DNA from: Piromyces finnis finn
Lineage: Eukaryota > Fungi > Neocallimastigomycota
Direction of reading: 5' to 3'
Length of the DNA stretch: 64,000 nucleotides
Assembly (NCBI GenBank): GCA_002104945.1
Contig: MCFH01000069.1
Coordinates: forward strand, 182,454-246,453
In this document: one piece after another, positions 25,783 to 50,300 of the stretch
Layout: each line of letters opens with the position of its first letter
Position numbering within the stretch: the first letter of the stretch is position 1
Notes under the pieces: generated by a model
The model's database searches: none
What the model was told of the DNA's origin: nothing
What the model saw: only the letters and a program-made list of their open reading frames with translations
Program-made: the position numbers and the translations under genes

Positions 25783-28016
25783 ATGAATATTATTAAATTA
25801 ATTCGTAGTTTAATACAAAATGAAAAATGTTTATCTAATGAACATAAAATAATAATTAATAATGAGTGTTTTTCATTTTTTGAAGGAATTAGCCTTATTG
25901 ATTGCAATAAACTTTCCAAAGATCAGTATAATATTAAATATAAAGATAAAGAAAATGAAAATATAAATGATACAACCAGTTATTCACTTTTAAACGTACT
26001 AGAAAAAAAATATAAAGAAAAAGTATTTAAATATAATTTTTATTTGAAAGATACAACAAAAACAAAATTTAATATATCTATAAATATACCTTCATATACC
26101 CTTAAAGATATTTATAATAAAATAATAAAGTTAGAATTACCAAATACTTGTCAATATGTAACTGCTTTTATCAAAAGAATAAATTACTATCATTACTTTA
26201 ATAAAAGGTATATTGAAACGCATCAATATAATCAAGTGTTAATTGCAGAAGATAAAAATAAGGATATTAAAGATTCAGATAATTTCATAATTATTAAATG
26301 TTGTCATGATAGTATAAGAATCACTGGAAATAAAATAACATTTTATAAAAGAGATACTTATGATAATATTATTTGTAAATTATTACCATGTTTAAATTAT
26401 TCAAATGATCAAATACTAATTAGATTCAAACCAAGTATTGTTTCTTTTACATACCCAATAAATATAAATTTCCGATTGTTTGATTTGATGTTATATGAAT
26501 ATTCTTTATATCCCTATATATATACCGATGAGAATGAAGATATAATAAAAAATAAAGAAAAATTGGTATATACAATAAATATCTTTAATCAGTCATTGAA
26601 TATGAAACTTTATAACAAGTATAAACAATTTACAGAAATTATTCAATTTCAAGAATTAGAATGGTATATGTATATGACTGTTAAAAAATATTAAAATATC
26701 TTTATTTATTATATATTGATTTTCATGCAAACTATTATAAAAAAAATAAAGTAATAAATATTCCATTAAAAATAAATTATAATCGATTATTTGGAAAATA
26801 TTATACTAGATATTTTAATAATAAAGATAAGGTATTACCAGTAATTGCTGATAAAGAAGAATGTATTAAGAATAATATACCGTATGTACAGTGGAATAAT
26901 AATTATTATAGATCACCAGAAAATTCAAGATATAAAATTGTTCTTTCAACAAATAAAAATTCTACTGATAATAATTTTGCGTTTCATGATAAAAAGTTAT
27001 TATTTGATTCAGTATTAGAATTAGATATTGTTCCTAAATGTGTTAAAGTGATAAGAAAGTACAAAGAAAAAGAAACATCTGTTTATTTTAATATTACTTA
27101 TAAACTAGACAAACATTGTAAAGGAAAATTTCCTTCCAATTTATTTATTTCTTATGGTTACGAATTACAAGGTTTATATAGACAATATTTTGATATTCCA
27201 GAAATAAATAATAAATTTATAATATGTTCTAATTGTAATAAATACATTAATATTCCAAGTCAACAGGAATTAATAAATTGTGTAAAAGAAAAGTTTAAGA
27301 ATAAGCAATTAAAACTAATAAATGAAAATTATAATTACAATGATATTAATATACTATCTTTTTCAGTAGATAATAATATGAATATATATCCATATTGTGT
27401 TTTTGATTATGTCTACAATTGTAATTCTTCTTTTCCCTTTTTAATAATAATGTTAAACACATGTAAATTATTTGTACTTCCTAATTATAGGTATGAATAT
27501 GTACTAAATTCAGATAAGAATTTGTTCAATTTTAATGATGATTTTGTACAAGCTATATTTTCTATGTATAAAAAAAATTCAATTTCAATCATAGATAATG
27601 CTACATTAACTAAATACATTAAACAATATGTTTCAGATAATAAAACAGTTTTAATAACAGAAAAGGAATTTTCAGATGAAAAGGTATATTTATGGAGATC
27701 GATTTATTCAGAAATAATACCAACAATACCAATAATAAAAGATAATGATGAATTATACAATACACTACCATCATTTTCTTTTTTATGTAAGAATATTAAA
27801 AATATAACTGCATATCATTATAGTATTATGAATGAAAACAATAAAAAAGTTATTATCTATGGTGTATGGAATAATGAAGATTATTATCCATGTAAAGCAT
27901 CCATAGAAATATTAAAATCAACTATTCTTAATAAACCTTATTTATTATTAAAAAGAAATTTAGATGGATCTATCTATTCATCTTTCAAAAATAATTCTAT
28001 TTATATGTTTTTTTAG
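25783..28016 (+). pseudogene. Viral-element ORFan (~744 aa) with one homopolymer frameshift
   Basis: Adding one A at GTTAAAAAATATTAA (~26686) gives a stop-free frame (VKKILKYLYLLYIDFHANYYKKNKVINIP...) running into ORF 27048..28016. 2234+1 nt = 745 codons. Confidence 0.7.
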
Positions 28017-29450
28017 TTAATAAGATATTAATACTATCGTAGATGCATAAAATTATTTTTTTTTTAATTTTTATATTTATTTATATATTTTGTTATTATT
28101 TAAATAATTATTTTTAAAATTGGAATTCAATATTGTAATTTTGTTATCATAACGAATTAACAAATTTATATTAAAAGCATAATTCATTGTAATATGTATA
28201 ATATATATTACTAGTAATATTCTATATATGTATATGTATTAATGTAAATAGCTTTAATAACATTAGATTATAAAAGTTATTTATAGATTAATTATGTATA
28301 TTAATTAATAAACTATATTCATAAAATATGTATTAAATTAAAATAATTTTTTAAAAAATATTAAGTTCTCTTGTAAATTCTTTTTAAAAATACTGTAAAT
28401 TTTATTTATAATTATATATATATGTATTAAATTATAAAATGATAATTAATAATACTTTATAAATATTTTGTAAATTTATAGTAAATAATTGTATATTTTG
28501 CATCTAAATATTTTATAAATATTTTATTTAAATTTTTTTTTAAATATATATTTTAAATTTCAAGTATGGAAGAATCTCAAAATATGCAATATTTTCCTGT
28601 TGAGGATATTGATTATATATGTAACAAAATTTTAAAAATTTTGAAGAAAATAAAAGATTGACTTCTTATATTGATCAAGTAAATAATAAAGTAAGAAATT
28701 ATTTAAAGAAAAAAATTAAAGCAGAAGAAATTGACTGTGATAAGTTTGCTAAAATAATTGTGGATAAAATCAAATCTCGTATGATAAAAGAAAATACTCA
28801 TGTTGGTATTTTAGCACTCAATCAGTTGGTGAACCTGTAACACAATCAGCATTAAGTTATTTCCACAAATTAAATACAAATGATAATAATGAATTGAAAG
28901 AATTATATAAATTAACTCATAATAAAATGGATTATAGTATAATGTAAAGAACTAATGTTCAATAAATAAAAACACAAATATATATAAAAAGGAAAATAAT
29001 AAAAGCAAATAAAAATTTTATTATTGAACACTTAACAAAATTATAACAGGTTAGTGTTTAATAATTTTATTTTTATTATAAAATTTTTTTGTTAATAAAA
29101 ACTCGAATTAAAAATAATTTTTTTGAGAAATTTCACTCGTATTTATATAAAAATTTTTAAAAGTAAATTTATAAAAATTTTACAACTTAATTTTTTAAGC
29201 CAATCAGAAATTATCTTCTTTGGTAAAATTTCGTTATAAAATATTTTAATAATTAAAAAAGATATTAATGAGGTTTCGAACTCGAGTAGTTCAAACCAAG
29301 GTCTTAGTTACTAACCACTAAGACAGGTTACTAATTTCTATGATTCGTTACATGGTCCTCCTCCAGGATTCGGATACCAGACGAATCAACTAAATTTATT
29401 TGTTACTTTATTATAAGAGAAATAATTGAAACGAGTGAATACATTTTGAA

Positions 29451-29483
<33 letters not shown>

Positions 29484-29552
29484 TGAATATTAAATTATAA
29501 ATATATTTTTTCATTTTTTATTTTCTATTCTCTTTTTCTCTTATCAATTACT

Positions 29553-29595
<43 letters not shown>

Positions 29596-29604
29596 TAACT
29601 ATTA

Positions 29605-32600
29605 CTAATGTGAATTATTAAAGTTTTTAATTAGTTCATCGCAGTTTAAATTACTTTCAGGTTCCCAAGATGCTTCTGAAAGCGGATAACCTTTCCATTT
29701 TATTAGATATTGAATCTTCCCATAATGCTTTCTTTTATCAAGTATTTCTTCTACTTCGTATTCTTCTTCTTCATTTACTATTATAGGTGGAGGTGGATCT
29801 TTGATTCTTCCAAAACTATCTTCATAATACGGTTCTAGGTTTGAAACATGAACAATTGGGTAAATCTTCAGCGATTTTGGTAATTCTAATTTATAAGTGA
29901 GATTAGAGATTTTACTAATTATCCTAAACGGGCCAAGTTTCCTAGGATTAAATTTTTTATTTCCTTTATGAATTATCAAGGAGCTATCCAACCATACTTT
30001 GTCACCAGTCTTGAATGTCGGAGGTTCTTGTCTATACTTGTCGGCGTATTTCTTTTGAACTTGGATGGCCTTCTTTAAGTTTTCTTTTAGTTTCTCCATT
30101 AGGTCTTCAAAGTCTCTTGTAAATTCTTCAGCTCTTGGAACATTCGTTTGGTCAGGAATTACCGGAGAGTATTTTGGGTGATAACCATAATTTAGGAAGA
30201 ATGGTGAGAATTTTGTTGAGTCTTGAACAGCATTATTGTAACTGAATTCTGCCAATGGAAGAAAGTTGATCCAATTTGTTCCTTTATAATTAGAAAAGCA
30301 TCTTAAATATTGTTCAACAACGGAGTTTACCCTCTCCGTTTGGCCATTGGATTGATGATGATATGGTGAAGAATATTTAACATTGACGTCCAAAGATTGG
30401 CAAATAGATTTCCAAAATTTCGAAGTGAATTGCGCGCCTCTATCGGAAATAATTTCAGAGGGGAGACCGTGAATTTTGAAAATATAATTCAAAAAAGCAA
30501 AAGCAGTATCAGAAGCAGAAGGAATACCTTTAAAGGGAATGAGGTGGCACATTTTAGTAAGGCGGTCAACTACAACAAGAATAGTGTTAAATCCATCAGA
30601 AGGAGGGAGGTCAGTAATGAAATCCATAGAAATAGAAGCCCAAGGATGGTCACTAATCTCAAGGGGTTGAAGTAAACCATATGGTTTATGACGAGAAGGC
30701 TTGGAGCGGCAACAAATCTCACAAGATCGGATATAATTCTTAACATCAATAGAAATGGATGGCCACCAAAAGTCACGAGAGATCAAAGAAATAGTTTTGC
30801 GGATACCAAAATGACCGGCAGAGGGGGAATCATGACAGAGTTTCAAAACGGAGGGACGGCATTTTAAAGGGACATAGATTCTATTATCAAAAAGAAGAAA
30901 ACTATTACTAAGAGAGAATTTATTACTTTGTGGATGTGGAGCTGGGAGATTCTTATTTTCAAGAAAATTGCAAATGTCAATGTAAAAAGAGTCGTTCACA
31001 TATTCAGATAATATTTCATCATTAAGAGAAGAAATGGAACAAATCAAAGCGCAGAAATTCTCAGGGCGTAAAACCGAAAAAGGAGCATCAGAAGGAAGAG
31101 AGGAATCTATATAATCAGGTCTTCGTGAAAGCGCATCAGGTTTACCATTTGATGAACCAGAGCGGTAGAGAATTTTAAAGTTAAATTCGGAAAGGAAAAG
31201 GGCCCAACGAACAAGACGTTGTGACATTTTTTCCGGTTTCTTTTGATATAGTAAGTTTCGATGATCTGAATAAATAGTAAACGGGGTTAAAGCACCTTTG
31301 AGAAAATGTCGCCAAGTTTCAAGAGCATTAACAATAGCTAAAAGTTCTTTATCGTATATAGGATAGTTTCTTTCAGCGGAAGTAAGAGATCTTGAATAGA
31401 AAGCGACAGGATGGATCATTTTATCATCAGGAGATTTTTGAGACAGAACTGCTCCTATAGCAAAGTTGCTAGAGTCGGTTTCAACAATAAAGGGAAGATC
31501 ACGATTTGGATGAGACAGGATGGGAGCAGATGAAATTAATGATTTAATGGTATTAAATGCATCAAGAGCTTCAGAGGAAAAATCAAATTTAACGTTTTTA
31601 CGAAGTAGTCTGTGAAGGGGTTGTGCAACTTTGGCAAAATTAGGAATAAACCGACGATAGTAGTTGGCTAGGCCAATAAAAGATTGAACTTCCTTGACAC
31701 TGGACGGAACTGGCCAATTAATAATAGCAGAAACCTTATTGGGGTCCATATGTATACCTTCAGAGGATATACGATGACCAAGGAAATCAATAGAGGAAAC
31801 AAAGAATTCACACTTTTCAAGCTTAGCATAAAGACCAGCATTTCTTAAGCGATCCAGGACTTCGATAACGTGCTTAATGTGGGATTTATGGTTTTCTGTA
31901 ACGAGTTTCTATATAAAGAATTTATTAATGTAGGAATTAATAATATTTATATAGAAAAATAAATTTTGTATTCCCTATAAGTCAATAAATTTATTTATTT
32001 AAAATAATTTTTTATTATTATTAAATTTTTTAAAAATAAAGATTTAAATTTAAAAGTTAATAAAAACACAACTATTTAATTTTTGATTCACATCACTTCT
32101 ATTTATACTTTTTCTAAATCTGATGTGGCTAAATTAAAAATTAAATTTTCTTTCTAAATTATTCTTTAAATTAATTAAAAATTACATAAAATGAATCTCG
32201 TGATAAAAATACATAAAATATTTAATTTTTCGAATATTCGAACTTATTCTTTTTCGAATAAGTTCTATAAGTTTCTATGAGTCATAAATTAAATTGTTAA
32301 ATAAATAATTTAAAATAAATTTTGGATCAAGGTGTGAGTCGAACCCGAGTGATCCAGATTAATGTCTTAAATACTAACCATTAAGACAATATTAATTTTC
32401 TAATAGATTCGTTACATTTTCAGAAAAAATAATTAAATCGTCAATATATGAATAAACAAAAATCCCTAGAATATTTTCCAGAACATCATTGATAAAATGC
32501 TGAAAAACAGCCGGGGCGTTTTTCAGTCCGAATGGCATTACCAGGTATTCAAAGTGGCCGAATTTGCAGGTGAAAGCTGTTTTATATTCATCACCCTTTT

Positions 32601-34494
32601 TGATTCGGACCAAGTTATATGCTGATCGTAAATCCAATTTTGAGAAGATTTTCGCTTTACCAAGATGCTCTAGCATATCTTGAATCAGAGGTAGAGGATA
32701 AGAATCTCTAATGGTAATTTTGTTGAGTTCCCTATAATCTTGACAAAGACGGAGTTCACCATTCTTTTTAGGAACGAAAAGTACAGGCGCACAAGCAGGA
32801 GATTTGGATTTCCTAATGAAACCCTTTTTGAGGTTTTCATCGATATAATCCTTCAAAACTCTTGTTTCTTCGTCTGTTAGTGGGTAGATTGGTCCATAAA
32901 ATAGCTTGGCATTTTCGATTAGGTTTATTTGGCAATCATAAGGACGATGAGGTGGTAATTGATCAGCAGAAGATTCGCTAAAGACGTCCATATATGATTC
33001 TAATTCCTTCGGAAGTTTAGTAATAGGATTTGAGTCTTTAAGAGAGTTTTTTGGTGAATAAGTGTCAACTTTAGAAAGAGATATATTAGAAGCCATGACA
33101 GTACAAGTCTCTTGTGATAAAGGATCGTTAACAGATTCATTGTTAATTAAGACAGATTTAGAATGATTTTCTTTGGGATTACGAGAATGAGATAACTTAG
33201 AATTTGAAAAAGAAGATTTAGATTTGTCAATAAAAATAGGCAAAGAAACGGAAGAAGAGTTATTGCAATCAGTAGAAAAAACAGAAGTTTCCTGATGGAA
33301 TTCGGGAACATTCGAAGGGAGAGTCATACAATGATCCAAGCAATATGAAGAACCAAAAGATAATTTATTATTTTCAAAGTCAATACTTGGATTATGTTCC
33401 TTAAGCCAACGTAGACCTAGAATACAAGGATATACAGGTAGATCAGTAACGTAAAAGACAGTACGGCATAGGTGATCCATGTAGCGAAGATTAAGAGGTG
33501 GAGTAGCTCCGAACAGTTTTTGGCTACCACCAATACCGAATACGTTGGGTAAATCTTCTTCATAGTGGTAGGGAATATTGTGATCGTTGCAATAGTCGAC
33601 ATCTATTAGATTAAGTGTAGAACCGGAGTCTATAAGAATTTTTGTGTCTAGTTCAAACGATAATTTAAAATCTGAGGTTACCCTATCTTGTTGCTTTTTC
33701 TTGGAATTGGTAGAATTATTTTGTAAAGAAACTAAAGATTCGAATGCTGAGTTTTTATTTCTTCTCTTATGACAATCTTTCAGTTGGTGTCCTGGAGATC
33801 CACAATAGACACATAAGTTTTCCTTACTTCTTCTTTCTTTTTCTTCCTTGGATAACGGACCAAAGTATCTTTTCTTCTTGGGATGTTCCTTTAGATTTGT
33901 GGAAGCCTTTCTGGAGCCATTGCTGGAATTAGAACTTGGTCCCTTAGAATTTTTGTCAAAAAATAATCCCCTGGTAGCAAGTCTGGAGTCTATTCTAGCT
34001 GCAATAGTTTGGAGGGAAAACAAATCTCTTGGTCCTGGGAACATCTCTAATATCTTCATTGCAACTTCTTGGTTGAGCCCAGCGATAAAAGCATCCATCT
34101 TAGCCTCTTCATTCCAGTTAGATTCATCAGAGTATTTGTTAAATTCAAGGATGTATCCTCTGATGCCGCCCAAACGATGTTGCTTGAGAGTACGTAGCAT
34201 TTGATTGGCTACGTAGACTGCATCATTGTTCCCATAGAACGCCTTTAGTCTTTCCTTGAATGCTTGGTAGTTGGTCAGACATGGATCATGGTTGTCAATA
34301 AGCGTAGCGGCCCAATTTAATGCATTTCCATAAAGGCGAGAAATCAGGTAGATAACCTTGCTCTCTTCATCTTGATATCTTTCGGGATAAAGGAGAAAAA
34401 CAAGTTCTATTTTGGCTAAGAAACCTTTGAGATATTTTCTGTCTCCTGCGAAACCGTCTTTTAGTGAGGCGTTATCAAATATTTGTCCTTCCAT
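29605..34494 (-). pseudogene. Single gag-pol ORF of element 1 (1454 aa once the nested LTR is removed)
   Basis: Zn knuckle CVYCGSPGHQLKDC, protease IDSGS, RT YLVMPFGLKNAP/YIDD, RNase [14 protein letters not shown], integrase HHCC + DDE + GPF, chromodomain EEEYEVEEIL..YLIKWKGY..SWEP. Removing 525 nt (LTR + one TSD) leaves 4365 nt, in frame. Confidence 0.95.
31897..32416 (-). mobile_element. Solo LTR nested in the RT domain of element 1
   Basis: TGTAAC...GTTACA termini. Perfect TSD TTTTC at 31892-31896 and 32417-32421. Confidence 0.93.
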
Positions 34495-37035
34495 TAGAAT
34501 TAAAAAATATAATTGTTTGAAAATAAAAATTATGTAAATAAGATAAAGTTATGTTTGAAGAAATTAAGAAAAAAAAAAAAAAAAAAAATTAAATCTTTAT
34601 TATTATTTATTGATTAAAATATTTTAAATATAGACAAAGAGTCAAATTAAATAGTATTGGACCATCAAATATTTAATTTTATTAGTATTCAATACTAGGT
34701 CCCTTGTAGCTCTTTGTTGATAACGTAGATATTATCAATTGTTAATATTGGAAATGAAAATTTTCAATAAAAGGAATTAACGGTATTAGTTTCTTTATTG
34801 TCACTTACTTAATTAAGCGGAAAGAAAAAAATAGGTTTAATTTCCCGATTATTAATAATATCTAAACAACAAAGTATTACGTATAGGTGTCCAACTATCC
34901 ACGCTAAGGGAGTTATTGAATCCTAACTTCTTTGTTATTTTATTATATTTTTCAAAAAATAATAAATAAAATTTAATTTTATTTATTAAAAGTAGAAAAC
35001 GTTTTATTAGAAAATGAATTTTTTCTTTATTATTAAATTAAGCGTCCTGGCGCTCCCCTTATAATAACTGTGGGTTTTACTTTTGTTTTCAGTACCCTTA
35101 TTGTTAAAATAAGCTTCACTGACTTACTTAATTTTTTAATAAATTAAAAATTCTTCCTTTTTTAAACACTAAGGTGTTATTATATATTTTAGGAGTTTTT
35201 ATTGTAAAGAACTAATGTTCAATAAATAAAAACACAAATATATATAAAAAGTAAAATAATAAAAGCAAATAAAAATTTTATTATTGAACACTTAACAAAA
35301 TTATAACAGGTTAGTGTTTAATAATTTTATTTTTATTATAAAATTTTTTTGTTAATAAAAACTCGAATTAAAAATAATTTTTTTGAGAAATTTCACTCGT
35401 ATTTATATAAAAATTTTTAAAAGTAAATTTATAAAAATTTTACAACTTAATTTTTTAAGCCAATCAGAAATTATCTTCTTTGGTAAAATTTCGTTATAAA
35501 ATATTTTAATAATTAAAAAGATATTAATGAGGTTTCGAACTCGAGTAGTTCAAACCAAGGTCTTAGTTACTAACCACTAAGACAGGTTACTAATTTCTAT
35601 GATTCGTTACATATAATTCATTTATATTTTAAACCAAATTATGATATTTTATTTAAGAAGAAAATAGCAAATCAAATGGAATACAGAATATTAAATGATG
35701 TTGTTTTAAATGTTGTGTATAATGGATTTACACTTCGTTTTTATTTTTGTCGCCATTCCATATTTAATTTAAAAATTCATCCAAAAACTATTTTCGAATC
35801 TGTAATTAAATATTTAGAAAACACCAATAATATATTGTTTACATGGGAATCATCTCTAAATCTTGAAGATCTTTTCATTGAATTTATTCAACCTGCTTCA
35901 AAGATTCTTGGTTGGTTTGATGATCATAAAATTGATTATATAGTTGATTCAGATATGCTTTGTGTTTTTAAACCAGGAATTGATGAATATAATAATTCTG
36001 ATAATTCTGATAATGAAGAAAATAATTATGATTCTGATAATGATATTAATAACAGCATTAATAACAGTATTAATGAATATTGTAATAATGAAAGTAATTT
36101 CCTAATAGATTATTTTAATGAACAGAATTTTGAATTTGAAGAATTTGATAAATATTATTTACTTGATAGTCATTTCGTTAATTTAGATAATGAAGATATT
36201 AACAAAGTATTAAATAATGTTGTATTATCAGGAGCTAAAGATATTGTTAAAGTTACGTTTAAAGCTATAGGTAATGAACATTATATAGAAGTTATAGGGT
36301 TAGATTTAGATAAACTTTTTAAAGAAGAATACATTGATAAGGAACGATCTACATATTTAGTCTATGCAAATTCATTCAATATTGATTTTGAATTACGTAA
36401 AAAGAATATTTTAAAGCAGTTAATAAAAATTGTAAATGCAGATATTACTTCATATAATATGCAACATATAGAATTATTAACTAATTTCATGTGTCGTGAT
36501 AATACGATTACACCAATGTCTCGTTTTGGAATGAGAAATGGTGATTATTCTTTTATATCTCGATTATCTTTTGAAGATCCTTTTAGGGTAATTCAGGATG
36601 TCTTTTATGGTGTTAAAGATGATTTAACATCTATATCTTCAAAATTAATTACCGGAATATACAATGATGAAGAAGAAAAAAATGAAAATATAATTAATAA
36701 TGAAAACACTATTAATACTGAAAATACTATTAATAATGAAGATACGGAAAATAATGAAAACAATAAAAATATTGAGAATACTATAAATATTATTGATAAT
36801 GAATAATATTTTATATTTTTAATTTTTATTTATTAAATGTTATAATATTTTTAAATAATATTAATTTAAAAATTTTTTTTGTAATTTAAAAATTAAATAT
36901 TTATAATAAAATATTTATAATAAAATAATTATAAAATTTTTTAAAAAATAAAAATATAAAATTTTGTATATAATAAATTATTTAAATTACTTAAATTATT
37001 TAAATAATTTTTATTGAATTATTAATATAATCAAA

Positions 37036-40000
37036 TTATAATAAATCGCTAATATCATTATTTAATACTTTTAATAAACTTTTAAATCCTGTTTCCACAT
37101 AATGATAATAATAATATTGATAATCTAGTTTAGGCTTGATGATATCTTTATTTTTAATAGCTTTTTCACATATATTCTTATACAAGTCTAAAGACATGAT
37201 TTTATCACCTAATAAAGTTGAATTGTTATTAAATGAAAATGAATTGGTATCTATAATAATATAATCTATTTTTTCACCAATTTTGTAATCCAAATTATAC
37301 ATTTTATGATTATTAACAAATAATAAGACATAATAAGATTTGTTGACATACTTTGGTCCAATAGACAATTTCATAATCAACTTTTCTAATGGTACGTTAC
37401 CAGAAAGTAATTTATTTTTCATTTCTAATACCTTATGACGTATCTGTTTTTCTGGATAATCAAAAAGAATCATGTATAAAAATATTTTATAATAATCTCT
37501 AATGAAAATACAAGTATTTTTTTTAATAATATCTATTCCTTTAATATACAACTCTGATGTATTTGCCAAAACACCACAATACTTTTTTTTGGATATGATC
37601 AACATTCTTTTAAATGTGTTTTCATATTTTAAATGCATTCCTTCCGGTAATTGATCTGTAACATATTCAGCTACTGAATGACAATCTTTAATAAATCTGT
37701 TTACATCGAAATCTTTATTATAACTTTTATCTTTATCATTTAATACATCAATATTACCATCATTCTTATTAGTGTCCATATTATTAGAGTTATTAATATT
37801 ATTTAAATTATTTTTATTATTAATATTATTTAAATTATTTAAATTATTAATATTATTAATATTATTTAAATTATTTTTATTGTTTAAAGTATTTTTATTA
37901 TTTAAGTTTTCCAAATATTCTTTTTTATATTCGATTAGACATGAATCTGTATCTCCATAAATTACTCTAAAATTAGTATTTTCACAAATTAAATCAATAG
38001 TTTTATTCAAGTAGTTTCTTCCCATACCTGTAGTACATTCAGCACCTGGTAAGAATCTTAAATACTTTAAGGAACTTGAACCAAGACATCCATAAATCGA
38101 ATTAGCTTGTATCTTTAATGCATATTGACGTTTATCGTATATGATATAATCTGAACCAGATGCCTTTTTCATCATGTTTTTATAACGAATTCTTTCTGAA
38201 AGTAACAGCTTCATCATTCGAGGTAAGATTCCAACATGAAGTTTTGTAAAGTAATATACCTTATTTCCTATATCAATTTTATGATATTCATCTTCAGAAT
38301 ATTTTCCAATATCACAATTGTTAATTAATGTTGTATAGCATATATTATGAGTAATAATGACACTTGGATATAAACTTGTGAAATCCAACATAGTGCAATA
38401 ATTGTATACACCAGATAATGGTTCTATTACAGTAGCACCTTTATAACTAGTAATATCCGAATTATCAATATCAACACATATATTATTGTCATAACAATAT
38501 TTATATAACAAATTGGCAAACTTTTTACTCTGACCATTTTTATAAACTTCATCCACACGAATTCTTGAAGTTTTAGCGATTTCCAAGAGTTGGATCCATT
38601 GATACGAAATATTAAATATTTCCAGAGTTAGGATTGAATCCATAATACAATACATAGCTACTTTATTTAAAGAATCATCTGTATTTTTATGAATTAAGTA
38701 AAACATATCTTTGTAGGGCAAATCAATCTTGTGCTTATTCAATAATTGTTCTGATATATAATTTAAACTAGCAGAAGGTAAATTTAAAGATTTTGCATAT
38801 TTGAAAATATCAATTGCTATTCTTCCTGGAATCTTAAGTTCAACTTCATTACTTGAGGTAGTTATAAATTTTGTAGGCATATTCCGAATTCTATTAGCTT
38901 TGAAAGGTGAATCTTTATCATCGATGATTAAATGCATACTAGTTCTTTGTGCTAAATATCTGTAATCAAATCCAAAAGTATTATATCCAATAATCAAATC
39001 AGGATCTAAATTTCGAATTTGTTTAAAAAATTCACAAATCAAGTCATATTCAGATTCTACAAAAATAATATCATACTTATCATTTAAAACATTATTTTTT
39101 AAAAGTTTATCTTTTTTTGATTTTTCATGTTTAATAATAAATTCTTCAATTGGTTCTAATAAAGTTTCCTCTTTTACAGTATTGTCATTATTATTTAAAG
39201 CATCATCTTTAATTAACTTATCATTTACTATACTATTATTTAACATACTTTTTAATTTATTATATCTTTTTTTAGTATTAGAATGATATGTATAATTATT
39301 ATCCAAAAGTTTCTTTAATCTGTTATATCTATTTTTTACTTCAGTATTATTATTTATAATAATAGTGTCTTTATTAACATCATTACCTTTATTATTCATA
39401 ACTTTATTATCATTGATATCAATATTAGTATTAACATAATTATCATTATTATTTATGTTAATACTAATATTGTAATTATTATTATCTGACTTATTATTAT
39501 CTATATTACTATTATTAAATACATTTTCATTATTATCTATATTTTTATTATTATCATATTGATTAGTATTAGTATACTCATTATTATTTTCATTGATATT
39601 ATTATTTACACTATTATCATTAATATTATTAATATTATTTTCATCAAAAAAATTAAACTTTTTACATGAATCATTAAATTTATTAATATCAATAAATGGA
39701 ATAAATGAAGGATCTATTTCATTTAGTTTTAATTTATTTACTATATTATTTTTATCTTTATATTTAACACAAATGGCAATGTTTCTTTGAATGTCTTTAT
39801 AATGATATACAATACTAATAGTTGATATAAAATCATTATATAAATAACAATTTGGAAAAGATTCAAAATCATGAGACATACATTCAATATCAAACGATAA
39901 TATAGATGGTTCTGGATATTTATCAATATTTTTTGCATGAATACTTTTATAGTTAACAATATATTCATTATTAAAAGTAGTATAATGATCTGAATTATTC

Positions 40001-40371
40001 TCTTGATAACTCTCCGAATAAATCCATCCAATAGTATCCAAATTTTGAATGGAAAGAAAAGATGATACTATATCCACATTAAATAACGTTGATTGGAATG
40101 AAATATATTCAGAATACTTTTTAAAATACACTTTGTAAATTGTTTGTTCACCATCAAGATAATGTCGTAATAATATTTTTTTCAAGACTTCTTTTTTATT
40201 ATTAATATAATCGAAATTTCTATTTACCGAATCAGAGTATTTAAATAAAGGAAAATCCTTAATCACAATAGCTATTTTACTATCATTTTCATTATAACCA
40301 AATCCAATAATTATAGGATAATCATCCTTAATGAATAATTCCCAATTATAAATGAAACAAGTTAATGACAT
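37036..40371 (-). CDS. polB: Family B DNA polymerase (virus-type) with Asn-rich insertions
   Basis: Exo I SFDIEC, Exo II GYNTFGFDY, Exo III YCIMDS. Pol motifs DFTSLYPS..NICYTT, RQYALKIQANSIYG, YGDTDS, KKKY, KG. Intact 1111-aa intronless ORF. Confidence 0.97.
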   Translation of the reverse strand: MSLTCFIYNWELFIKDDYPIIIGFGYNENDSKIAIVIKDFPLFKYSDSVNRNFDYINNKKEVLKKILLRHYLDGEQTIYKVYFKKYSEYISFQSTLFNVDIVSSFLSIQNLDTIGWIYSESYQENNSDHYTTFNNEYIVNYKSIHAKNIDKYPEPSILSFDIECMSHDFESFPNCYLYNDFISTISIVYHYKDIQRNIAICVKYKDKNNIVNKLKLNEIDPSFIPFIDINKFNDSCKKFNFFDENNINNINDNSVNNNINENNNEYTNTNQYDNNKNIDNNENVFNNSNIDNNKSDNNNYNISININNNDNYVNTNIDINDNKVMNNKGNDVNKDTIIINNNTEVKNRYNRLKKLLDNNYTYHSNTKKRYNKLKSMLNNSIVNDKLIKDDALNNNDNTVKEETLLEPIEEFIIKHEKSKKDKLLKNNVLNDKYDIIFVESEYDLICEFFKQIRNLDPDLIIGYNTFGFDYRYLAQRTSMHLIIDDKDSPFKANRIRNMPTKFITTSSNEVELKIPGRIAIDIFKYAKSLNLPSASLNYISEQLLNKHKIDLPYKDMFYLIHKNTDDSLNKVAMYCIMDSILTLEIFNISYQWIQLLEIAKTSRIRVDEVYKNGQSKKFANLLYKYCYDNNICVDIDNSDITSYKGATVIEPLSGVYNYCTMLDFTSLYPSVIITHNICYTTLINNCDIGKYSEDEYHKIDIGNKVYYFTKLHVGILPRMMKLLLSERIRYKNMMKKASGSDYIIYDKRQYALKIQANSIYGCLGSSSLKYLRFLPGAECTTGMGRNYLNKTIDLICENTNFRVIYGDTDSCLIEYKKEYLENLNNKNTLNNKNNLNNINNINNLNNLNNINNKNNLNNINNSNNMDTNKNDGNIDVLNDKDKSYNKDFDVNRFIKDCHSVAEYVTDQLPEGMHLKYENTFKRMLIISKKKYCGVLANTSELYIKGIDIIKKNTCIFIRDYYKIFLYMILFDYPEKQIRHKVLEMKNKLLSGNVPLEKLIMKLSIGPKYVNKSYYVLLFVNNHKMYNLDYKIGEKIDYIIIDTNSFSFNNNSTLLGDKIMSLDLYKNICEKAIKNKDIIKPKLDYQYYYYHYVETGFKSLLKVLNNDISDLL

Positions 40372-40680: not shown

Positions 40681-41124
40681 TTACAATAAAATATATTTAT
40701 CATTAATAATTAGATTATATATATATAAATAACGAATAATATCAAGAGTATATTCTATATAATCTTCATTATCATTCATACCGATTATATCCTTAAAAAG
40801 TTCATTAACTTTATTCTTATATTCTGGATTATCAAGATTTTCAGAATTAAAATTAGAAAATTCGTAATTTTTAATAATAAAGATTACATATAACATTGGC
40901 ATATTTAATTTGCTAAATCGGATTTCATTTTCATTGGAATTATTATTCCTATTTATTATATGGACCTTTATAAAATTTAAAAATTCTTTAATGTATAAAG
41001 AATTATTATACTTTCCAGTAGTAGTGCTTATTAGTTTGTACTGGATTTGTTGAAGTATAGATTTTTCATAACCATTACTTTTTCCTTTTAATTGGTGAGT
41101 AATTTTAATGGAATCTATACTCAT
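40681..41124 (-). CDS. Hypothetical protein (viral-element ORFan, 147 aa)
   Basis: ATG-initiated ORF inside the element, flanked by near-pure AT spacers. No motif recognised. Confidence 0.65.
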   Translation of the reverse strand: MSIDSIKITHQLKGKSNGYEKSILQQIQYKLISTTTGKYNNSLYIKEFLNFIKVHIINRNNNSNENEIRFSKLNMPMLYVIFIIKNYEFSNFNSENLDNPEYKNKVNELFKDIIGMNDNEDYIEYTLDIIRYLYIYNLIINDKYILL

Positions 41125-41465: not shown

Positions 41466-42056
41466 ATGTCTGAAGTTATTAAAAGCGTATCACAAAAAAG
41501 ATTAAACGAATTAAAACGTACAGTAATCACTGATGCTATTGATCTTGTTTTAAACACTATATGTGATAAGGTTTCAATAGATGAAAAGGATAAATCATTT
41601 ACTGTTAAAAAATTGACAAAAACCATAGAATTAATATATAAATTACTTGGTGATTTAAATAATGATCAATTTCCTTCAGAAATCATCAAATCATTAAAAC
41701 CTCATATTACAAGTAAATTAAACAATACATTTTGTTTTAAACAACCATCTAAAAATAATAACAGTAATAAAAAAAGTATTTTTGAAAGTGCACCAATTAT
41801 ATTCTATCCAAATATTCAGTTAGCATTAGAAATTTCTTACAAAGAAATTAAGAAGGATATTAAACTTCAAAAATTACCAGAACATTACCATTTCTTTGTA
41901 TTTCCATTAACCATGGATGATAAAGAATATATTATTACTTATGCTGAAGAAAACAAATATTCAAAAAGAGAAATCATTGAAATATTACTTGATGATGTTG
42001 AAGTTAGTAAAGATGTACTTCCCCATGAAATTAAAACCAAATATGGATTTATTTAA
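41466..42056 (+). CDS. Hypothetical protein (viral-element ORFan, 196 aa)
   Basis: ATG-initiated ORF with coding-like composition. No motif recognised. Confidence 0.7.
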   Translation: MSEVIKSVSQKRLNELKRTVITDAIDLVLNTICDKVSIDEKDKSFTVKKLTKTIELIYKLLGDLNNDQFPSEIIKSLKPHITSKLNNTFCFKQPSKNNNSNKKSIFESAPIIFYPNIQLALEISYKEIKKDIKLQKLPEHYHFFVFPLTMDDKEYIITYAEENKYSKREIIEILLDDVEVSKDVLPHEIKTKYGFI

Positions 42057-42585: not shown

Positions 42586-42678
42586 ATATAATATATTAAT
42601 TTTTTTAAAATGATAATTTTTAATTCTATTTTATGTTTATAAAGTTTTTCGTTAATAGTAAGTTTATTTGTCTATTAA

Positions 42679-44465
42679 ATGGTAGCAATAAATACACAGA
42701 ATATTGATACAAGTGGTATTAACATATACCATCCAATTGTATACTTTTTATTTATCCTCTTAAAGCATGACGAAACTAAAAGAACAAAATCTTATTCATT
42801 GATTGCTAAATACCTAGAAACTTACAATATAAAAGTTGATAATGATGAAAGTAAGGAAAAGAATAGAATCCTAAATGAAGAAATTGGAATTCTTAATAAT
42901 CGATTAAATAATATAAAGATTGAAGGAAACAATACTTTGGAAAATAAAAAATTCAAAAATGACATTATTGATATCATTTATAGTTGTATTGATGAGTTTG
43001 GTTTACGTATTGTAAATATTTCTCGATTAATGACTATTAAAAAGTATTATGGTAAAACTTCATTATCAAATCATTCTATATTCAATATATTCATAATTTT
43101 AAATTTGGGATATTTTGTGTATAGTGACAAGGAATGGTATAAATTCTTTTACAGTCTTAATGGATGGGAATCAATAAGTTCTTACGACATAGCTAAAGAA
43201 ATAAATTTGTATTTGACAGGAAATCTTAAGAATATGTGTATCGAATATAATATATCTTTAGATGGCATCACTAATGAATTAATGAATTTCTTTACCAATC
43301 ATACCATAATCTATAATCACTTGGAACAACTTGAAACCTTCTTTTACACCCATGATTTTATTAAACGAATTGATAAAGGTAATGTATTAAGATTCGAAGA
43401 CTGCGTTTATGACTTTGATATTGGAGCTCCACGTCCTGGACGTCCTAATGATTTTTGTCTTAAATCAACCAATTACAATTACTATAATGATAATAGGGAT
43501 AAAATGGAAGAAGTCTACCAATTCTTAAGAGATATTTTTGTTGAGGAAGACTTGATAAATTATGTATTGAAATTGATTGCTTCTACCCTTACTCTTGGTA
43601 ATAAATTACGTTCCATTTTGTTTTTCATTGGATCTGGTCGTAATGGTAAAACTACTTTTACTAATATGTTAAGACTTGCACTTGGAGATTATGCTGCTAC
43701 TCCAAACGTATCCTTATTTCTAGGAAAGTCCACCAGTGCTGATAAACCAAGTCCTCATATGATGGATCTTAATAAATGTAGAATTTCGATTTGTGAAGAA
43801 CCAGATGCTCGATCCATTAACATCACTGGTGATGCTAAAGCCATTACAGGAAATGTCGGATATATTAAGACTAGATCTTTGTATAAAGATTTACAAACCG
43901 TTTACGTTGATTTATTACCAATTATCAATACCAATGATAAATTAACTATATCCAATTTGGATAATGCTTTAATTGATAGAATCTTGGTTATTCCTTTCAC
44001 TCAACGTTTTGTTAACAAAATGAATATCTCAATATTATCATCCACTCAAAACATTGACAACTCTTCCATCAAGCAGGCCAACACAATGTGGCAAGGTTCC
44101 CATGTTCAAAGCTATGCTGAAGCATTAATCCACATCTTGATCAAAAATTACCAAAAGATTATACAAATTTGGAGATACCTCAAAGTGTCATCCATGCCAC
44201 AAAGCATTTCATTATGAGATGTGACCATATAGCTAGATTCTTGGAAAAGTATATTATTGATAAAAATGACAACTTTGCCATTCCTATCGATGAAGTTTAT
44301 TCCTTATATAAAGGTTGGTTTAAAAATTTTGTTTCTACTAGAGCTCTAAGTTACAGTTTGGAAGATTTCCGTATGGATTTAATTAAATATAATATAAGAA
44401 TAAAAAGTGTAATGTCATCTGATCATTTAGTTGAATCAATTATTGGATATAGATTGGCAAAATAA
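42679..44465 (+). pseudogene. D5: D5-like superfamily-3 helicase (~595 aa) with one frameshift
   Basis: D5_N-like VLRFEDCVYDF...RPGRPNDF, Walker A GSGRNGKTT, Walker B ICEE, motif C INTN, ALIDRILVIPF. One missing A at ~44166 joins the winged-helix-like C-terminus in 44169..44465. Confidence 0.9.
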
Positions 44466-44915: not shown

Positions 44916-44948
<33 letters not shown>

Positions 44949-45093: not shown

Positions 45094-48000
45094 TTATTTT
45101 TCATTTATAGTTGTATGTATTCCGATGGAATCTAAATAAGAATTCATAATATTAAAACTATTTGAAATTGTTAAAGATTTTGTTGTGGAATTACAACATG
45201 TTTCAGATATACTTATTGAATGACAAATATTACAATATTTAATTTCCATAACATCTGTATTATTTCTAAACATATCCTTTAATATGGCATTGGCACCATG
45301 AGCTATTAAAGCATCCCTTTCCATTTCTCCTATTCTTAAGCCACCATTATTAGCCTTTCCTTCCGTTGGTTGCTTACTAATAGAATTAACACTTCCGGTA
45401 ATACGATAAAACATTTTTTCTTCTACTTGATGTTGTAAAGCTGTATAGTAGCAAACGCCTACAAATGCGGATCCTATATTTATTCCTGTTTTAGGATCTA
45501 TCATATTTTCCATGATTGGTATTCCACTTTCAATAAATGTTGATCTGAAATTTTTTATATCATTACTTTCTATGGAAGCATCAAAAAATGTTCCAAATTT
45601 CTGAGGATCAATCACCATACACTTACTGACGTACATTTCAATTAAATGACCAACTGTCATTCTCGATGGAAAAGCATGTGGATTAACAATGATATCTGGT
45701 ATTATTCCATATTCTGTTCTTGGTAATTCATCTTCTGGTAGTATTGATCCAATAACACCTTTTTGAGCATAGCGACTAGCAAACTTATCTCCTTGTTGTG
45801 GCTTATACATATGACGAACTTCCACACAACAATAGCACATATCATCTTTAATAAATGTGGTACAATGCTCAACAATAACAGGCTTTCTAAAAATATTTTC
45901 TATATCTTCAACTTCATTCTTTACAAGATTATATTTCTTAAAAATTATTTCATTGGAACACGATGAATCTTGTGCAATTGGTGTATTTGGTTTGGGTAAT
46001 CCATTTTCATAGTTTTCATTTATATTCAATAACATTTCTTCTTTAATATTGTAAGAAACATATTGATATCTATATTTAATATTACTAAACAAACCATTAT
46101 CTATACTTTCGGCATTGAATATAACACTGTCTTCTTGATTATTTCCAAATGCCATAATAGCTACTACCACATTTTGACCACTAAATCTATGATAAGTATT
46201 ATTATTTGTTATTGTTGATAATGTAGTCATTAAATCATTATTACTGCTATTTTCATCTTTTTCAATATTGATATTTGTAAGAAGGTCAATTCGATTTCTG
46301 AATTCTTCATTATTTATCTGTATATTTCTTTCAAAATTATTATGCTTTATAATTTCGTGTAAATAATTTTTATTATTTTCTTTAAAATCATTTTCTTCAA
46401 ATTCATTACTATTATCTTCATCATCAATATTTGTAAATAAATTAAATAAATTACTCAAGGTATAATTGGTATCATTAAATAAAATATTCAAAGGTTGATA
46501 ATGACAAAGTCTGCGTGATAAAATAGATTCTAATTTGGTCATACAAAATGGACGTTGAGCATGAATTAATTTTCTTGAATTATCATTAAATTGAAATATT
46601 GTACTGTCATTTGACATACATTGTTTTGTCATACCTGCTTGAAATGTTAGTCTTGGTACATGATTATTTCCTGGAAATGGGGAAAGAGCACTGATTAATC
46701 CAAAAACAAAGTTTGGATCTATTTCTTCATATTTATATTCGGTATTGCATTTGTATTCAGAAATGTCGATAAATCTTACACCTATTTCAGATCCATTTTT
46801 TAAGACTTTTATTGGTCTCATAATTCTTCCTTCATCCGTAAATATATAGAATGTAACATTATCGAATATACAACTAATAAATGTATATGTTAATTTTAAT
46901 TTTTTATATACATATTCTACTAAATCAGTTGAAGTAAACCCAATGAACCTACTATTCAACAATACAGGATATTCAGTAAGTTTGCCGTTTATACATGGAT
47001 TCATATGATCATTAACAAAAGAATATAAAATTGTTTTGTCTATTGAAAAGTCCGGTGCTACCAATACTGATATTCCAAAATACTTGACAAGACCTACATC
47101 TTTGGATTCCGGTGTTTCAAAAGGACAGAAATAACCATAATCATAAGACATTCTTAACTCCGAATTTTCACTTTCCGTATTAATCGGAATTTGAACTCTT
47201 CGTAAATGTGATAATTTATCATAATAGGAACGCTTACTAAGCGTCTGTACTGCAATGGCCGAGTAATCTTTGAAATAGGAACGAACTAGTCCTGTTTTAA
47301 CATTATTAAATAATTTAAAATTTAAGTTTTTAACAAATTTATTTAATGGAACCTTTTTATTTTCTAATGTATAGTATTTAATAAAACGATACATTGAATA
47401 TGGGAAAGTGTCAATACGATTGTTATAATGTTCTTTTGTATCGTAAAAGAAGGCTCTTGCCATTGACAGATAAGTATAAAATTTAATGTCATTATTATTT
47501 AATTTATTTTTTTCATCAGTATCAATAACAGGATGGAGTGAATCCGGAGTAAGATAGCTATCTATTATCTTATTAATTACAGCGATTATTTCTTCACTTG
47601 ATTCTTTTCGATGTGAAATAATACTTTCAAAGGTATCTTCTGGTAAAGAATCCGGAATGTCAATTACAATATTTTCTGGTAGATTATTTCCAAAAAGAGT
47701 AGAAATAATGATTTCTTTAATTTTAGCCATTGATAATTCCGGTTTTAAATAATGAAGAATGTACACGAGAGAGACATTTTGTTTATCATGAGATTTAATT
47801 CCTTTTACCCGTAGATATTGGAAAAATAAAGAAAAATAAACTCGTATGTCCAGATTAATGTGATTTTTGACATTCTGAATCTTTTTATGACGTTCTTTTG
47901 CCATAAAAGTAGTAATAATATCAATGTTTGTATTTTCATTTTTGTAATTCAAGTCTTTTTTATTTTTGCCAAGGACTATTTTTAAATACCTGACATATTT

Positions 48001-48399
48001 ATAATTTGTAAACATTTCTAAAGACTGAAATTTTCCATATTTATTACATTCTTTGTATTCTATGTAATCTTCTTTATCTTTATAAATAAAACATGGCGTA
48101 CAAAATATTTCTTGTGATATAATAACCTTTTCAACACCGTCTACTATAAACACACCGTCAATAGGTGCTGGTATTTTTATTTCATAAGATCCTTGAATCA
48201 GTGATATATAATAATAATCTTTTGATACCATTAAATCATCGTAACTAACTTTTGGTATAGAAATAGTTAAATGATTTAATCCTGGAATATTTTTTTCTAT
48301 AAATTCTTTTATATCATAAATCTTCTTTACAAATAATTTATCAATATTTGCAAATACATTGTATTTATTAATAAATTTAGTTAAGTAATCAGTACTCAT
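45094..48399 (-). CDS. RPB2: DNA-directed RNA polymerase second-largest subunit (virus-type)
   Basis: GVFIVDGVEKV, LSHLRR, CPFETPES.DVGLVK, NQEDS, GDKFASRYAQKG, PDIIVNPHAFPSRMT, GGLRIGEMERD and a C-terminal Cys ribbon. Intact 1101-aa intronless ORF. Confidence 0.97.
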   Translation of the reverse strand: MSTDYLTKFINKYNVFANIDKLFVKKIYDIKEFIEKNIPGLNHLTISIPKVSYDDLMVSKDYYYISLIQGSYEIKIPAPIDGVFIVDGVEKVIISQEIFCTPCFIYKDKEDYIEYKECNKYGKFQSLEMFTNYKYVRYLKIVLGKNKKDLNYKNENTNIDIITTFMAKERHKKIQNVKNHINLDIRVYFSLFFQYLRVKGIKSHDKQNVSLVYILHYLKPELSMAKIKEIIISTLFGNNLPENIVIDIPDSLPEDTFESIISHRKESSEEIIAVINKIIDSYLTPDSLHPVIDTDEKNKLNNNDIKFYTYLSMARAFFYDTKEHYNNRIDTFPYSMYRFIKYYTLENKKVPLNKFVKNLNFKLFNNVKTGLVRSYFKDYSAIAVQTLSKRSYYDKLSHLRRVQIPINTESENSELRMSYDYGYFCPFETPESKDVGLVKYFGISVLVAPDFSIDKTILYSFVNDHMNPCINGKLTEYPVLLNSRFIGFTSTDLVEYVYKKLKLTYTFISCIFDNVTFYIFTDEGRIMRPIKVLKNGSEIGVRFIDISEYKCNTEYKYEEIDPNFVFGLISALSPFPGNNHVPRLTFQAGMTKQCMSNDSTIFQFNDNSRKLIHAQRPFCMTKLESILSRRLCHYQPLNILFNDTNYTLSNLFNLFTNIDDEDNSNEFEENDFKENNKNYLHEIIKHNNFERNIQINNEEFRNRIDLLTNINIEKDENSSNNDLMTTLSTITNNNTYHRFSGQNVVVAIMAFGNNQEDSVIFNAESIDNGLFSNIKYRYQYVSYNIKEEMLLNINENYENGLPKPNTPIAQDSSCSNEIIFKKYNLVKNEVEDIENIFRKPVIVEHCTTFIKDDMCYCCVEVRHMYKPQQGDKFASRYAQKGVIGSILPEDELPRTEYGIIPDIIVNPHAFPSRMTVGHLIEMYVSKCMVIDPQKFGTFFDASIESNDIKNFRSTFIESGIPIMENMIDPKTGINIGSAFVGVCYYTALQHQVEEKMFYRITGSVNSISKQPTEGKANNGGLRIGEMERDALIAHGANAILKDMFRNNTDVMEIKYCNICHSISISETCCNSTTKSLTISNSFNIMNSYLDSIGIHTTINEK

Positions 48400-48953
48400 T
48401 TTTATCTATCATTTATAATAGTTATAAATTAAAATTAATTATAATCATTTTATAAATTATCAAATATCATATATAAATAAAATTTTAAAATAATAAATTC
48501 AATTATAAACAATAAATTTATAATAAAAATAATAATAATAAAATTTTTTAGTTTTAAAATAATCTATTTTAATATCTTTTTTTTGAATTATTAAAAAAAC
48601 TTTATTAAAATTTTAATTAAATATAATAAGTATTTTAATAAAATATTTTTAATTATTAATGTTGATTATACTATTTATTATTACATTAAAAATTATATAT
48701 AATATTATAAATAAATGAAATATATATAAATAATATATATATATATATATATAAATAATATATAATATATTATTGAATATGTTTAAATAATTTCTTTTTA
48801 ATATTTTTAAATATATATAAAAGATTTGATTATAAATTCAATTTAATAAAATAAATAAATATTGATTTAAATACCAATAGATGTATAAATAATATATTAA
48901 CTATTATTTTAATATAGTTTTTATGGTTATAAATATTAATATTTTATCAATAT

Positions 48954-50300
48954 TTATTTATTAATGATTGACATCGAATAAGTGTATTCTAAGAATGAAT
49001 CATCTATATCAATAGTATTTGATGAAAATGGATAATAATAGATTTCATTATTATTATAATCACGAACAATAAAATCTTTATCGGTTACAATATCTTCCAT
49101 GCTTTTGACAAGCTCTCTTTGTAAATAACCTGTAGAAGAGGTATTAAGTGAAGTGGAAATAATACCTGCACGACCTGATTTAGAATGGATAAATAATTCT
49201 TTGGCTGTAAGTCCTTCGGAGTATCCTCTTTTAATAAAACATTCTTGTAATATAGCCTGAGTTCCTAACGATGCTAAAATTTGAATAAGATTATCACCTG
49301 ATCCTTTTGATCCACTATTGATAATATTAGTTAAATTATTATCAAGTGCTTCTGCTAATTTTACTAATACATAATGACTATTTAAACATAATTCTTTTAA
49401 TTTACCATCAACGTGCTTACCCGAAGTTAAAATAGATGAATCTACACTTGACAAGGTTATTGTCGATAAAGTATCGGGAATCTTTTCCAAAATGCAATTA
49501 AATTTGTTTTCAAGTTCAGTATCTGGTATACAATCTGAAATGGAAATACTTATGATATGAAATAAGTTATATTCATGAACCATACGTTGTACATCCCACA
49601 TAAACTTCAAGTAAAAATCGTTACCATAATGAGAAATGGAATTTAACAATTCCGTTTGATTAGCACCATTGATAGTATGAAGTAGAATGCCATGATCTAC
49701 TAAATATTCGTCACCCATTTTTAAAGTTAGTGATTTTGGAAACAACAATGAAATTAAGTGCTTATATGGTATTTTATCGGTATTCATTCGAGACTTGTAA
49801 TATTTACAAAATGAATTCCATTTTTTCTTTGATATTTTCAATTTTTTACATATATTTTCGAGAACATGAGGTTCAACAATATGTTCATCTCTTGTCATAT
49901 TGTATAAACCAGTTAAAGTATCTTGAATAAATTTAATCATAAGTGAACCATCCTTAAATGAACGAAAATTATTTTTAATATTTAATTTACTTGCTAACTC
50001 CTTTTTAGACTCTTCACCTGGAAGCCAAAAAATATTCATTTCATCGCCATCAAAATCAGCTTGGAAAACATTAGCTATTAGTGGATTGATTTGAATGGTT
50101 CGGCTACTACTAGGAAATGATCGAATGGAAAGTATAGAGGTAGTTTGGAGTGTAGGCTGTCTATTAATAATTACATAGTCATTAGGTTTATATCCATAAG
50201 GAATTAATTAATCTGTAAATTCTTTTGATATCAATACTTTATCCAAAGGTATATTTATATTTGGTACAATAACACTACGAAGACAAAAGTTTTGTCTTTT
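48954..50300 (-). pseudogene. RPB1: RNA polymerase largest subunit, N-terminal half (A'-like), 5'-truncated
   Basis: Upstream of the listed ORF the same frame reads KRQNFCLRSVI...FTD*LIP...NRQPTL...QADFDGDEMN (stop at 50208-50210; motif at 50043-50063). Later motifs: FIQDTLTG, SGSKGS, GLT..E.F.H...GRAG, TSSTGYLQRELVKSMED. Confidence 0.92.

Follow-up and report, generated by a model that had tools for sequence, protein, structure and literature searches.

Gene content and condition of the Piromyces finnis element

The window analysed here is a 64,000-nt stretch of contig MCFH01000069.1 of the anaerobic gut fungus Piromyces finnis, and the element in question lies at positions 25783–50300 of that window, whose numbering is used throughout. 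The element carries genes for a family B DNA polymerase (PolB), a D5 helicase, the second-largest RNA polymerase subunit (RPB2) and a split largest subunit (RPB1), all intronless and contained in 17,843 nt once a Ty3 insert is excluded, with a GC content of 2.6–10.3% in the spacers between genes (n = 7). The original prediction of intronless PolB, D5, RPB2 and two RPB1 halves in ~18 kb net, separated by nearly pure AT spacers, is thereby borne out. PolB (37036–40371, minus strand), an open frame of 1111 aa with Asn-rich inserts, matched PF00136 (E 1e-64) and PF03104 in Pfam with no match to PF03175, as expected of the RNA/DNA-primed enzyme that had been proposed in place of a protein-primed pGKL type. 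RPB2 (45094–48399, minus strand; PF00562, E 5e-56) is likewise open, and the D5-like superfamily 3 helicase (42679–44465, plus strand; D5_N PF08706 E 3e-7, PF03288 E 0.015) has no recognisable primase domain and is frameshifted near 44155, its orthologue on the metagenomic contig L161 being a single 595-aa open reading frame (ORF). The catalytic motifs DFDGDE, GDKFASRYAQKG, YGDTDS and GSGRNGKT occur in the proteins of the element.

RPB1 is encoded by two genes 20 kb apart on opposite strands. RPB1-N (48954–50300, minus strand; PF00623/04983/05000/04998) has its own stop just past the bridge-helix motif, and RPB1-C has its own start at 28566. The 5′ part of RPB1-C (28566–28942, plus strand), recovered by three-frame translation and tblastn with P0244, holds the GEPVTQSALSYFH motif and two frameshifts, and its 3′ part (35617–36806, plus strand) matched PF04998 (E 2e-5) and was 38% identical to P0244 by tblastn. 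Two ORFans of 147 aa (40681–41124, minus strand) and 196 aa (41466–42056, plus strand) had no Pfam or NCBIfam family at cut-off; the former, whose structure model was unusable (pLDDT 41), may resemble a small Pimascovirales protein, and a second copy of the latter lies on another P. finnis scaffold. A third supposed ORFan disappears, because the ORFs at 25783 and 26685 form a single gene, discussed below, whose relatives are 728–748 aa long.

The two halves of RPB1-C are separated by a Ty3/gypsy chromovirus (28943–35611, minus strand) flanked by the 5-bp target duplication TATAA, and its long terminal repeats (LTRs) agree at 408 of 410 aligned bases. This places the block in a chromosome, as the original prediction held, and makes it older than this recent insertion. 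At the other end, RPB1-N loses its 5′ end at 50300 to the middle of a second, truncated Ty3 (50301–53900, minus strand, with a nested solo LTR at 51603–52027) that stands in place of the rest of the replicon. At the left edge, terminal repeats or a target duplication were looked for and none was found. The near-identical LTRs date the retrotransposon only and provide no evidence for a recent integration of the element, which had been proposed from the intact PolB and RPB2; those frames instead reflect purifying selection before integration, as RPB2 compared with the L161 orthologue gave a dN/dS of 0.10 over 808 codons (dS for D5 was saturated).

Some of the damage may reflect errors of assembly rather than decay. 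All four frameshifts (one each in VETF-L and D5, two in RPB1-C) fall in short homopolymer runs, and the RPB1-N stop at 50208–50210 is contradicted by another base in all five short-read contigs covering the site. Besides that stop, 8 of 12 RPB1-N variant sites among the best-supported rows listed were at third-codon positions. One short-read contig tracks RPB1-N to 50300 with 26 differences and then continues for 231 letters unlike the window, indicating a further copy that extends beyond the point at which this one breaks off. No short-read piece bridged the 50300 junction among the 10 of 65 pieces listed. One short-read run contained 0.85 of the words sampled from the window, possibly being the source sample and hence not independent, and no RNA run was among the sequencing runs listed as containing the sequence.

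A predicted early transcription factor and a candidate promoter motif

The gene at 25783–28016 (plus strand, frameshifted near 26685–26690) is predicted to encode the large subunit of the early transcription factor VETF (VETF-L), an identification that appears to be new and turns two former ORFans into one frameshifted gene. A Foldseek comparison of a structure model of its relative P0225 with viral models returned VETF-L matches (E 1.6e-11 to 1e-7). Those of Solivirus, Pithovirus, Tunisvirus and Marseillevirus ranked first (E 1.6e-11 to 1e-10), iridovirus VETF-L was also among the top matches, and residues 77–326 of the model adopt a TBP-like fold (Z 9.0). As VETF-L is a virus-only gene, the predicted identity would be an independent pointer to Pimascovirales, and it points to Nucleocytoviricota rather than Mirusviricota. 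A HMMER search over 1.84 billion representatives retrieved 39 VETF-L proteins, those looked up being from Neocallimastigomycota or unnamed; a scan with the VETF-L alignment returned solely the circular relative described below. The best match of the VETF-L profile in a PDB sequence search had an E of 0.8, and the ESM Atlas gave nothing usable. A glycosyltransferase identity suggested by ESM Atlas matches at 0.91 was rejected for low recognition.

Stray pieces of this gene recur. The window itself holds a piece of its 5′ end at 5916–5981 (plus strand) and an inverted piece at 13903–14004 (minus strand), and at least eight P. finnis scaffolds bear VETF-L pieces (P0226–P0246), several comprising the 5′ part only, as if this end were captured more often. 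Two intronless ORFs with no Pfam family, at 14402–15436 (minus strand, 344 aa) and 6029–6742 (minus strand, 237 aa), each lie near a stray fragment and may be captured element genes.

The hexamer AAATGA occurs within 130 nt upstream of six of the seven genes, compared with 1/7 in antisense orientation, 1/8 downstream and 35/200 host windows (shuffle p 5e-5). We consider it a candidate early-promoter motif. It reads AAAATGA at 42607–42613 (plus strand), 72 nt upstream of D5, and the L161 orthologue of D5 has the same motif at −66. The remaining distances were −52 for RPB2, −51 for the 147-aa ORF, −104 for VETF-L, −130 for RPB1-C and, as AAATGA, −104 for the 196-aa ORF; in the circular relative, AAATTGA precedes 11 of 37 genes. 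The AAATGA motif resembles the early promoters of poxviruses and mimiviruses.

The gut-fungal family and a circular relative

Database searches delimited a compact family. RPB2 retrieved 25 proteins at 921–1982 bits with the next match at 240 bits, and PolB retrieved 20 at 897–1758 bits with the next at 187. All named members are from Neocallimastigomycota (Piromyces finnis, Anaeromyces robustus and three Neocallimastix assemblies) and the others are metagenomic, the exception in naming being one RPB2 on L161, a contig of a Methanosphaera metagenome-assembled genome that also bears D5. The window PolB is 57–85% identical to PolBs of P. finnis, Anaeromyces and Neocallimastix, and 100% identical across the best aligned part to P0123, which is named P. 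finnis. Neocallimastix assemblies contribute many of the 83 RPB2 and 80 VETF-L members of the protein clusters, and many intact copies sit on small scaffolds of 20–90 kb, with two RPB2 genes on a single 308-kb scaffold. The family is multi-copy, and it is under purifying selection. As a side observation, L161 (1–5134) is assigned to Methanosphaera stadtmanae and its family RPB2 and D5 are annotated there; as a contaminant it might distort trees of archaeal RNA polymerases.

Gong et al. 2020 named this family fundsalphavirus and placed it beside Pithovirus (PMC7017919). Their copies number 26 in Neocallimastix californiae, 6 in Piromyces finnis, 4 in Anaeromyces, 4 in Piromyces E2 and 1 in Pecoramyces, sharing D5, an SNF2 helicase, a SAM methyltransferase, RPB2, RPB5 and a split RPB1. 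Supplementary Fig. 2 of that paper draws a P. finnis locus with RP1n, RPB2, D5, POL, RP1c, a retroelement, an AAA-ATPase and an ankyrin gene, and this order, flanks included, is that of the window read right to left. As hosts, genes (DNAP, D5, RPB2, RP1n, RP1c) and gene order, including RPB2-D5-POL-RP1c, all coincide, the element is almost certainly a fundsalphavirus. Nucleocytoviricota ancestry and an anaerobic-fungus host are upheld, and copies in different genera retain synteny (in part from PMC7017919). A distinct new lineage is not: locus and family have been in print since 2020, so this headline of the original prediction is not new. Its statement that no capping enzyme is present stands for the truncated copy in the window and fails for the family, in which sister copies bear an AdoMet methyltransferase (PMC7017919). 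That paper regards the copies as giant-virus fossils, and VETF-L, a promoter motif, a unit length or a complete genome do not appear in the parts of it considered here. These points and the capsid-less replicon reading set out below were not found in the literature searched, which covered few subscription papers and yielded no description of a capsid-less free form of such elements; the parts consulted of PMC12341934, PMC9405923 and PMC12142844 contain no description of such elements.

Unit size was approached through Logan contigs bearing the genes of a close relative. The longest measured 42,490 nt for RPB2 (present on 38 contigs), VETF-L (on 32) and one PolB variant (on 5), and further maxima lay at 42,473 nt (17 contigs) and 42,285 nt (7 contigs). 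In N. californiae, contigs of 40–51 kb consist mostly of family genes, one in permuted order (figure in PMC7017919).

Among 161 loci, the best match to the PolB profile (336 bits, the next at 291) was IMGVR_UViG_3300038443_002148 (L082, L162–L165), a 51,666-nt contig with 37 ORFs of at least 100 aa whose ends overlap at 150 of 151 nt, which makes it a unit of about 51.5 kb, either circular or from a concatemer. This relative encodes a replication set (PolB, primase-less D5, ligase, FEN, UDG and MutS), a transcription set (RPB1-N, RPB1-C, RPB2, RPB5, TFIIS, a VETF-L-like protein, a capping enzyme and two superfamily 2 helicases), and a lysozyme and lectins. The split RPB1, the short VETF-L and the primase-less D5 are common to the circle and the gut family; the VETF-L-like protein, assigned to DUF5757, is the best match among its 37 ORFs to the A4 profile (E 1.9e-5). 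The circle grouped with the gut family in PolB trees, with support of 99/98 under LG+G4 and 92/94 under a mixture model, and in an RPB2 tree with 91/97; the trees comprised 26, 26 and 14 rows drawn from 158 PolB ORFs and 120 RPB2 matches and included neither named references nor host Pol delta/Pol II. The clade of L112 adjoined the gut family weakly in the mixture-model PolB tree (78/82), and P0141, found on 44-kb contigs, was rejected as a relative as it groups elsewhere in the PolB tree. A cluster-mate of the circular relative lies on a 49,512-nt contig. Scans of viral_contigs with the window RPB2 and with an RPB2 alignment found no family member, and PolB-alignment scans gave distant PolBs alone among the matches listed for the 16/64 and 14/64 parts scanned, so other complete relatives may lie in the remaining parts.

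The circle also carries genes outside these sets (L082 2832–5774; L162 806–2236; L165 774–5300), namely a peptidoglycan-binding lysozyme, a beta-propeller lectin, a protein ending in a bacteriocin-like mannose-lectin domain, a MutS with HNH and an unexplained 493-aa ORF. A ~50-nt sequence repeated in tandem about four times at L164 14390–14620 may mark a replication origin, and a 288-aa ORF looked primase-like by eye and had no Pfam or PDB support. In a Zancudomyces copy the neighbouring domains are LysM, chitin-binding and GH18 zymocin-alpha-like, and Neocallimastix copies end on one or both sides in a chitin-binding gene (PMC7017919); both recall killer-plasmid cargo and both could be host flanks. 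In the window, outside the element, a gene at 436–2247 (plus strand) fuses six chitin-binding (CBM18) repeats to a phage-tail-lysozyme domain (PF18013, E 6e-27), and a bacterial-type gene resembling an AAA-ATPase joined to a PD-(D/E)XK nuclease lies at 16157–20295 (plus strand) in frameshifted, tandemly duplicated pieces, with a decayed piece at 11331–11736. A 550-nt repeat family, 78–89% identical, occurs at 9069–9620, 57476–58027 and, inverted, 59508–60044; one copy ends in a long poly(A), and the family is possibly a non-autonomous retroelement.

Replicon, virus or mobile element

Of the features that mark Nucleocytoviricota, PolB, the D5 helicase and a multisubunit RNA polymerase are present in the window, and the early transcription factor large subunit is present by Foldseek (E 1.6e-11, from a middling model). 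Pfam gave no match to a double jelly-roll major capsid protein in the window, where the copy is truncated, or in the 36 of 37 circle ORFs scanned, and none to VLTF3 or any other VLTF in those ORFs or, for VLTF3, in the window's element. The A32 packaging ATPase was likewise found in neither, the ATPases of the circle being D5, two superfamily 2 helicases and MutS, and the element is therefore not classed as a virion-forming member of Nucleocytoviricota. HK97 capsid, terminase and portal, expected of Mirusviricota, had no Pfam match in window or circle, these profiles not being mirusvirus-specific. In the examined parts of the published A32 and MCP (major capsid protein) trees, rows from Neocallimastigomycota are absent (PMC7017919). 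No integrase or transposase of the element's own was found in the window, where the integrases are those of Ty3, or in the circle.

Taking these observations together, we think it probable that the locus is a chromosomal fundsalphavirus copy, truncated and hit by retrotransposons, and that its parent was likely a plasmid-like replicon of ~42 kb that had no capsid and stemmed from pithovirus-like large DNA viruses. In such a replicon, VETF would bind the AAATGA motif and recruit the element's own RNA polymerase, and the capping enzyme and SNF2-type helicase of the family would complete one transcription programme of the early class, free of host control and most likely cytoplasmic, with D5 and PolB replicating the element's DNA. 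Given that late factors, packaging ATPase and capsid were not found, the element would be passed on by cytoplasmic inheritance without a virion, and chromosomes would repeatedly capture pieces that then decay. The original prediction of a streamlined virus or capsid-less replicon is supported as to streamlining and probably as to the missing capsid, and its virus form is not favoured.

Several observations weigh against this reading. The Logan contigs of 42.3–42.5 kb are known by length alone and could be one integrated, repeat-bounded copy in a much-sequenced strain. The P0225 model is of middling quality (pLDDT 61.5, TM-scores of about 0.2), and a PDB comparison returned TBP-like proteins, including chain H of the vaccinia intermediate-promoter complex (Z 6.9), so that the fold alone does not fix a VETF identity; hhalign linked the gut-family and circle VETF-L weakly (probability 1.4%, E 0.038). 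The circle is distant, at about 35% in the PolB core; a long-branch warning attaches to its grouping in the PolB LG+G4 and RPB2 trees, and the mixture-model PolB support was not starred. About ten circle ORFs without a family may hide a divergent capsid. AAATGA was chosen after inspection of the sequence, its distance to the start varies from −51 to −130, and PolB lacks it. A tblastn search of the window using proteins of the circular relative (E 0.01) detected no primase, capping enzyme, SNF2 helicase, SAM methyltransferase or RPB5, the copy being truncated and the queries distant.

The strongest alternative, which we hold to be a real but clearly lesser possibility, is that the copy is a fossil remnant of a pithovirus-like virus that did form virions, with structural genes either so divergent that they escape detection or located on a second segment or in a helper virus. 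VETF is packaged in the virions of poxviruses, pithovirus capsid genes are divergent, and the circle has unexplained ORFs of 301, 493 and 837 aa. This is the reading of Gong et al. 2020 and one option of Maumus et al. 2014, and the family's jumps among six fungal phyla and a moss without co-speciation (PMC7017919) would be easier with particles. Against a virus, however, 36 of 37 ORFs of the circular-complete relative gave no match to an A32-type ATPase, a late factor or a capsid, and the same set of genes, again lacking those for morphogenesis, is seen in gut fungi (PMC7017919) and moss (PMC4083422).

It is improbable that the copies represent a large mobile element of the Polinton or Teratorn kind that amplifies itself in the nucleus, spreads by integration and has no free phase. 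The many intact, slightly differing copies per genome and the paired RPB2 genes of the 308-kb scaffold would suit such an element, but integrase and transposase are missing from both the window's element and the circle, the left edge lacks terminal repeats or target duplication, many intact copies sit on the 20–90 kb scaffolds, and an RNA polymerase and capping kit of its own would be needless in the nucleus. Host retrocopies, an assembly chimera or a contaminant, to which the unbridged 50300 junction and the best PDB matches of the profiles (Pol II RPB2, 252 bits; Pol delta, 239 bits) might point, are very improbable, as those PDB scores fall far under the scores inside the family, VETF-L lacks a cellular counterpart, gene order is conserved between genera, a host Ty3 with target duplication lies inside, and the short-read run, possibly the source sample, contains most of the sampled words.

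The replicon that we favour recalls the yeast killer plasmids pGKL1/2, which are capsid-less cytoplasmic DNAs with their own RNA polymerase, capping enzyme, helicase and short upstream promoter motif, and fragments of which are captured by the nucleus. They have a protein-primed PolB, terminal proteins, a fused, reduced RNA polymerase and linear genomes of about 9–13 kb with terminal inverted repeats, whereas the window element has a PF00136-type PolB, a D5 helicase and a multi-subunit RNA polymerase, and its outside relative maps as circular or as the unit of a concatemer. A further likeness is the lectin or chitin-binding cargo of relatives (in part from PMC7017919). By analogy, the element may work like a yeast cytoplasmic virus-like element without being one, as its PolB is not protein-primed. 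Pimascovirales (pithoviruses, cedratviruses, marseilleviruses and iridoviruses) share the VETF-L fold matches and a published PolB and RPB2 affinity (PMC7017919) and differ in having genomes of 100–600+ kb, a one-piece RPB1, late factors, virions and a VETF-L of about 1100–1400 aa, compared with 625–748 aa in the gut family and circle.

Regions resembling nucleocytoplasmic large DNA viruses in the moss Physcomitrella (Physcomitrium) patens share a split RP1, DNAP, D5, SNF2 helicase, capping methyltransferase, UDG, FLAP and TFIIS, the lack of a capsid or packaging ATPase in the sections consulted, and LTR insertions; they differ in their plant host, a 13-kb consensus of 20 ORFs and the silencing of all copies (PMC4083422). 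The moss sequences fall inside fundsalphavirus diversity (PMC7017919). Mycodnaviridae are also partly integrated Nucleocytoviricota of early-diverging fungi but are defined by a major capsid protein, and the main text describing them does not mention Piromyces, Pimascovir-, Pithovir- or Neocallimasti- (PMC13533422).

Whether such capsid-less gene sets are whole tiny genomes or scraps of a large one was left undecided by Maumus et al. 2014 (PMC4083422); the circular-complete 51.5-kb relative and the recurrent 42.5-kb contig size make it directly testable. More tentatively, at slightly less than an even chance, fundsalphaviruses may be a living class of capsid-less 40–50 kb DNA replicons, descendants of giant viruses reduced to replication and early-class transcription, existing free in gut fungi (at about 42.5 kb) and in other early-diverging fungi, with cargo of lectin, chitin-binding or lytic type, as in killer plasmids, and seeding chromosomes with copies such as this one. 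To our knowledge, anaerobic gut fungi have no good genetic tools. If the reading is true, a Nucleocytoviricota lineage would have turned into a plasmid-like replicon in parallel to, and independently of, the yeast killer plasmids, the element would rank with the smallest DNA elements known to encode a multisubunit RNA polymerase, and it might offer a native vector and an orthogonal expression system for these fungi.

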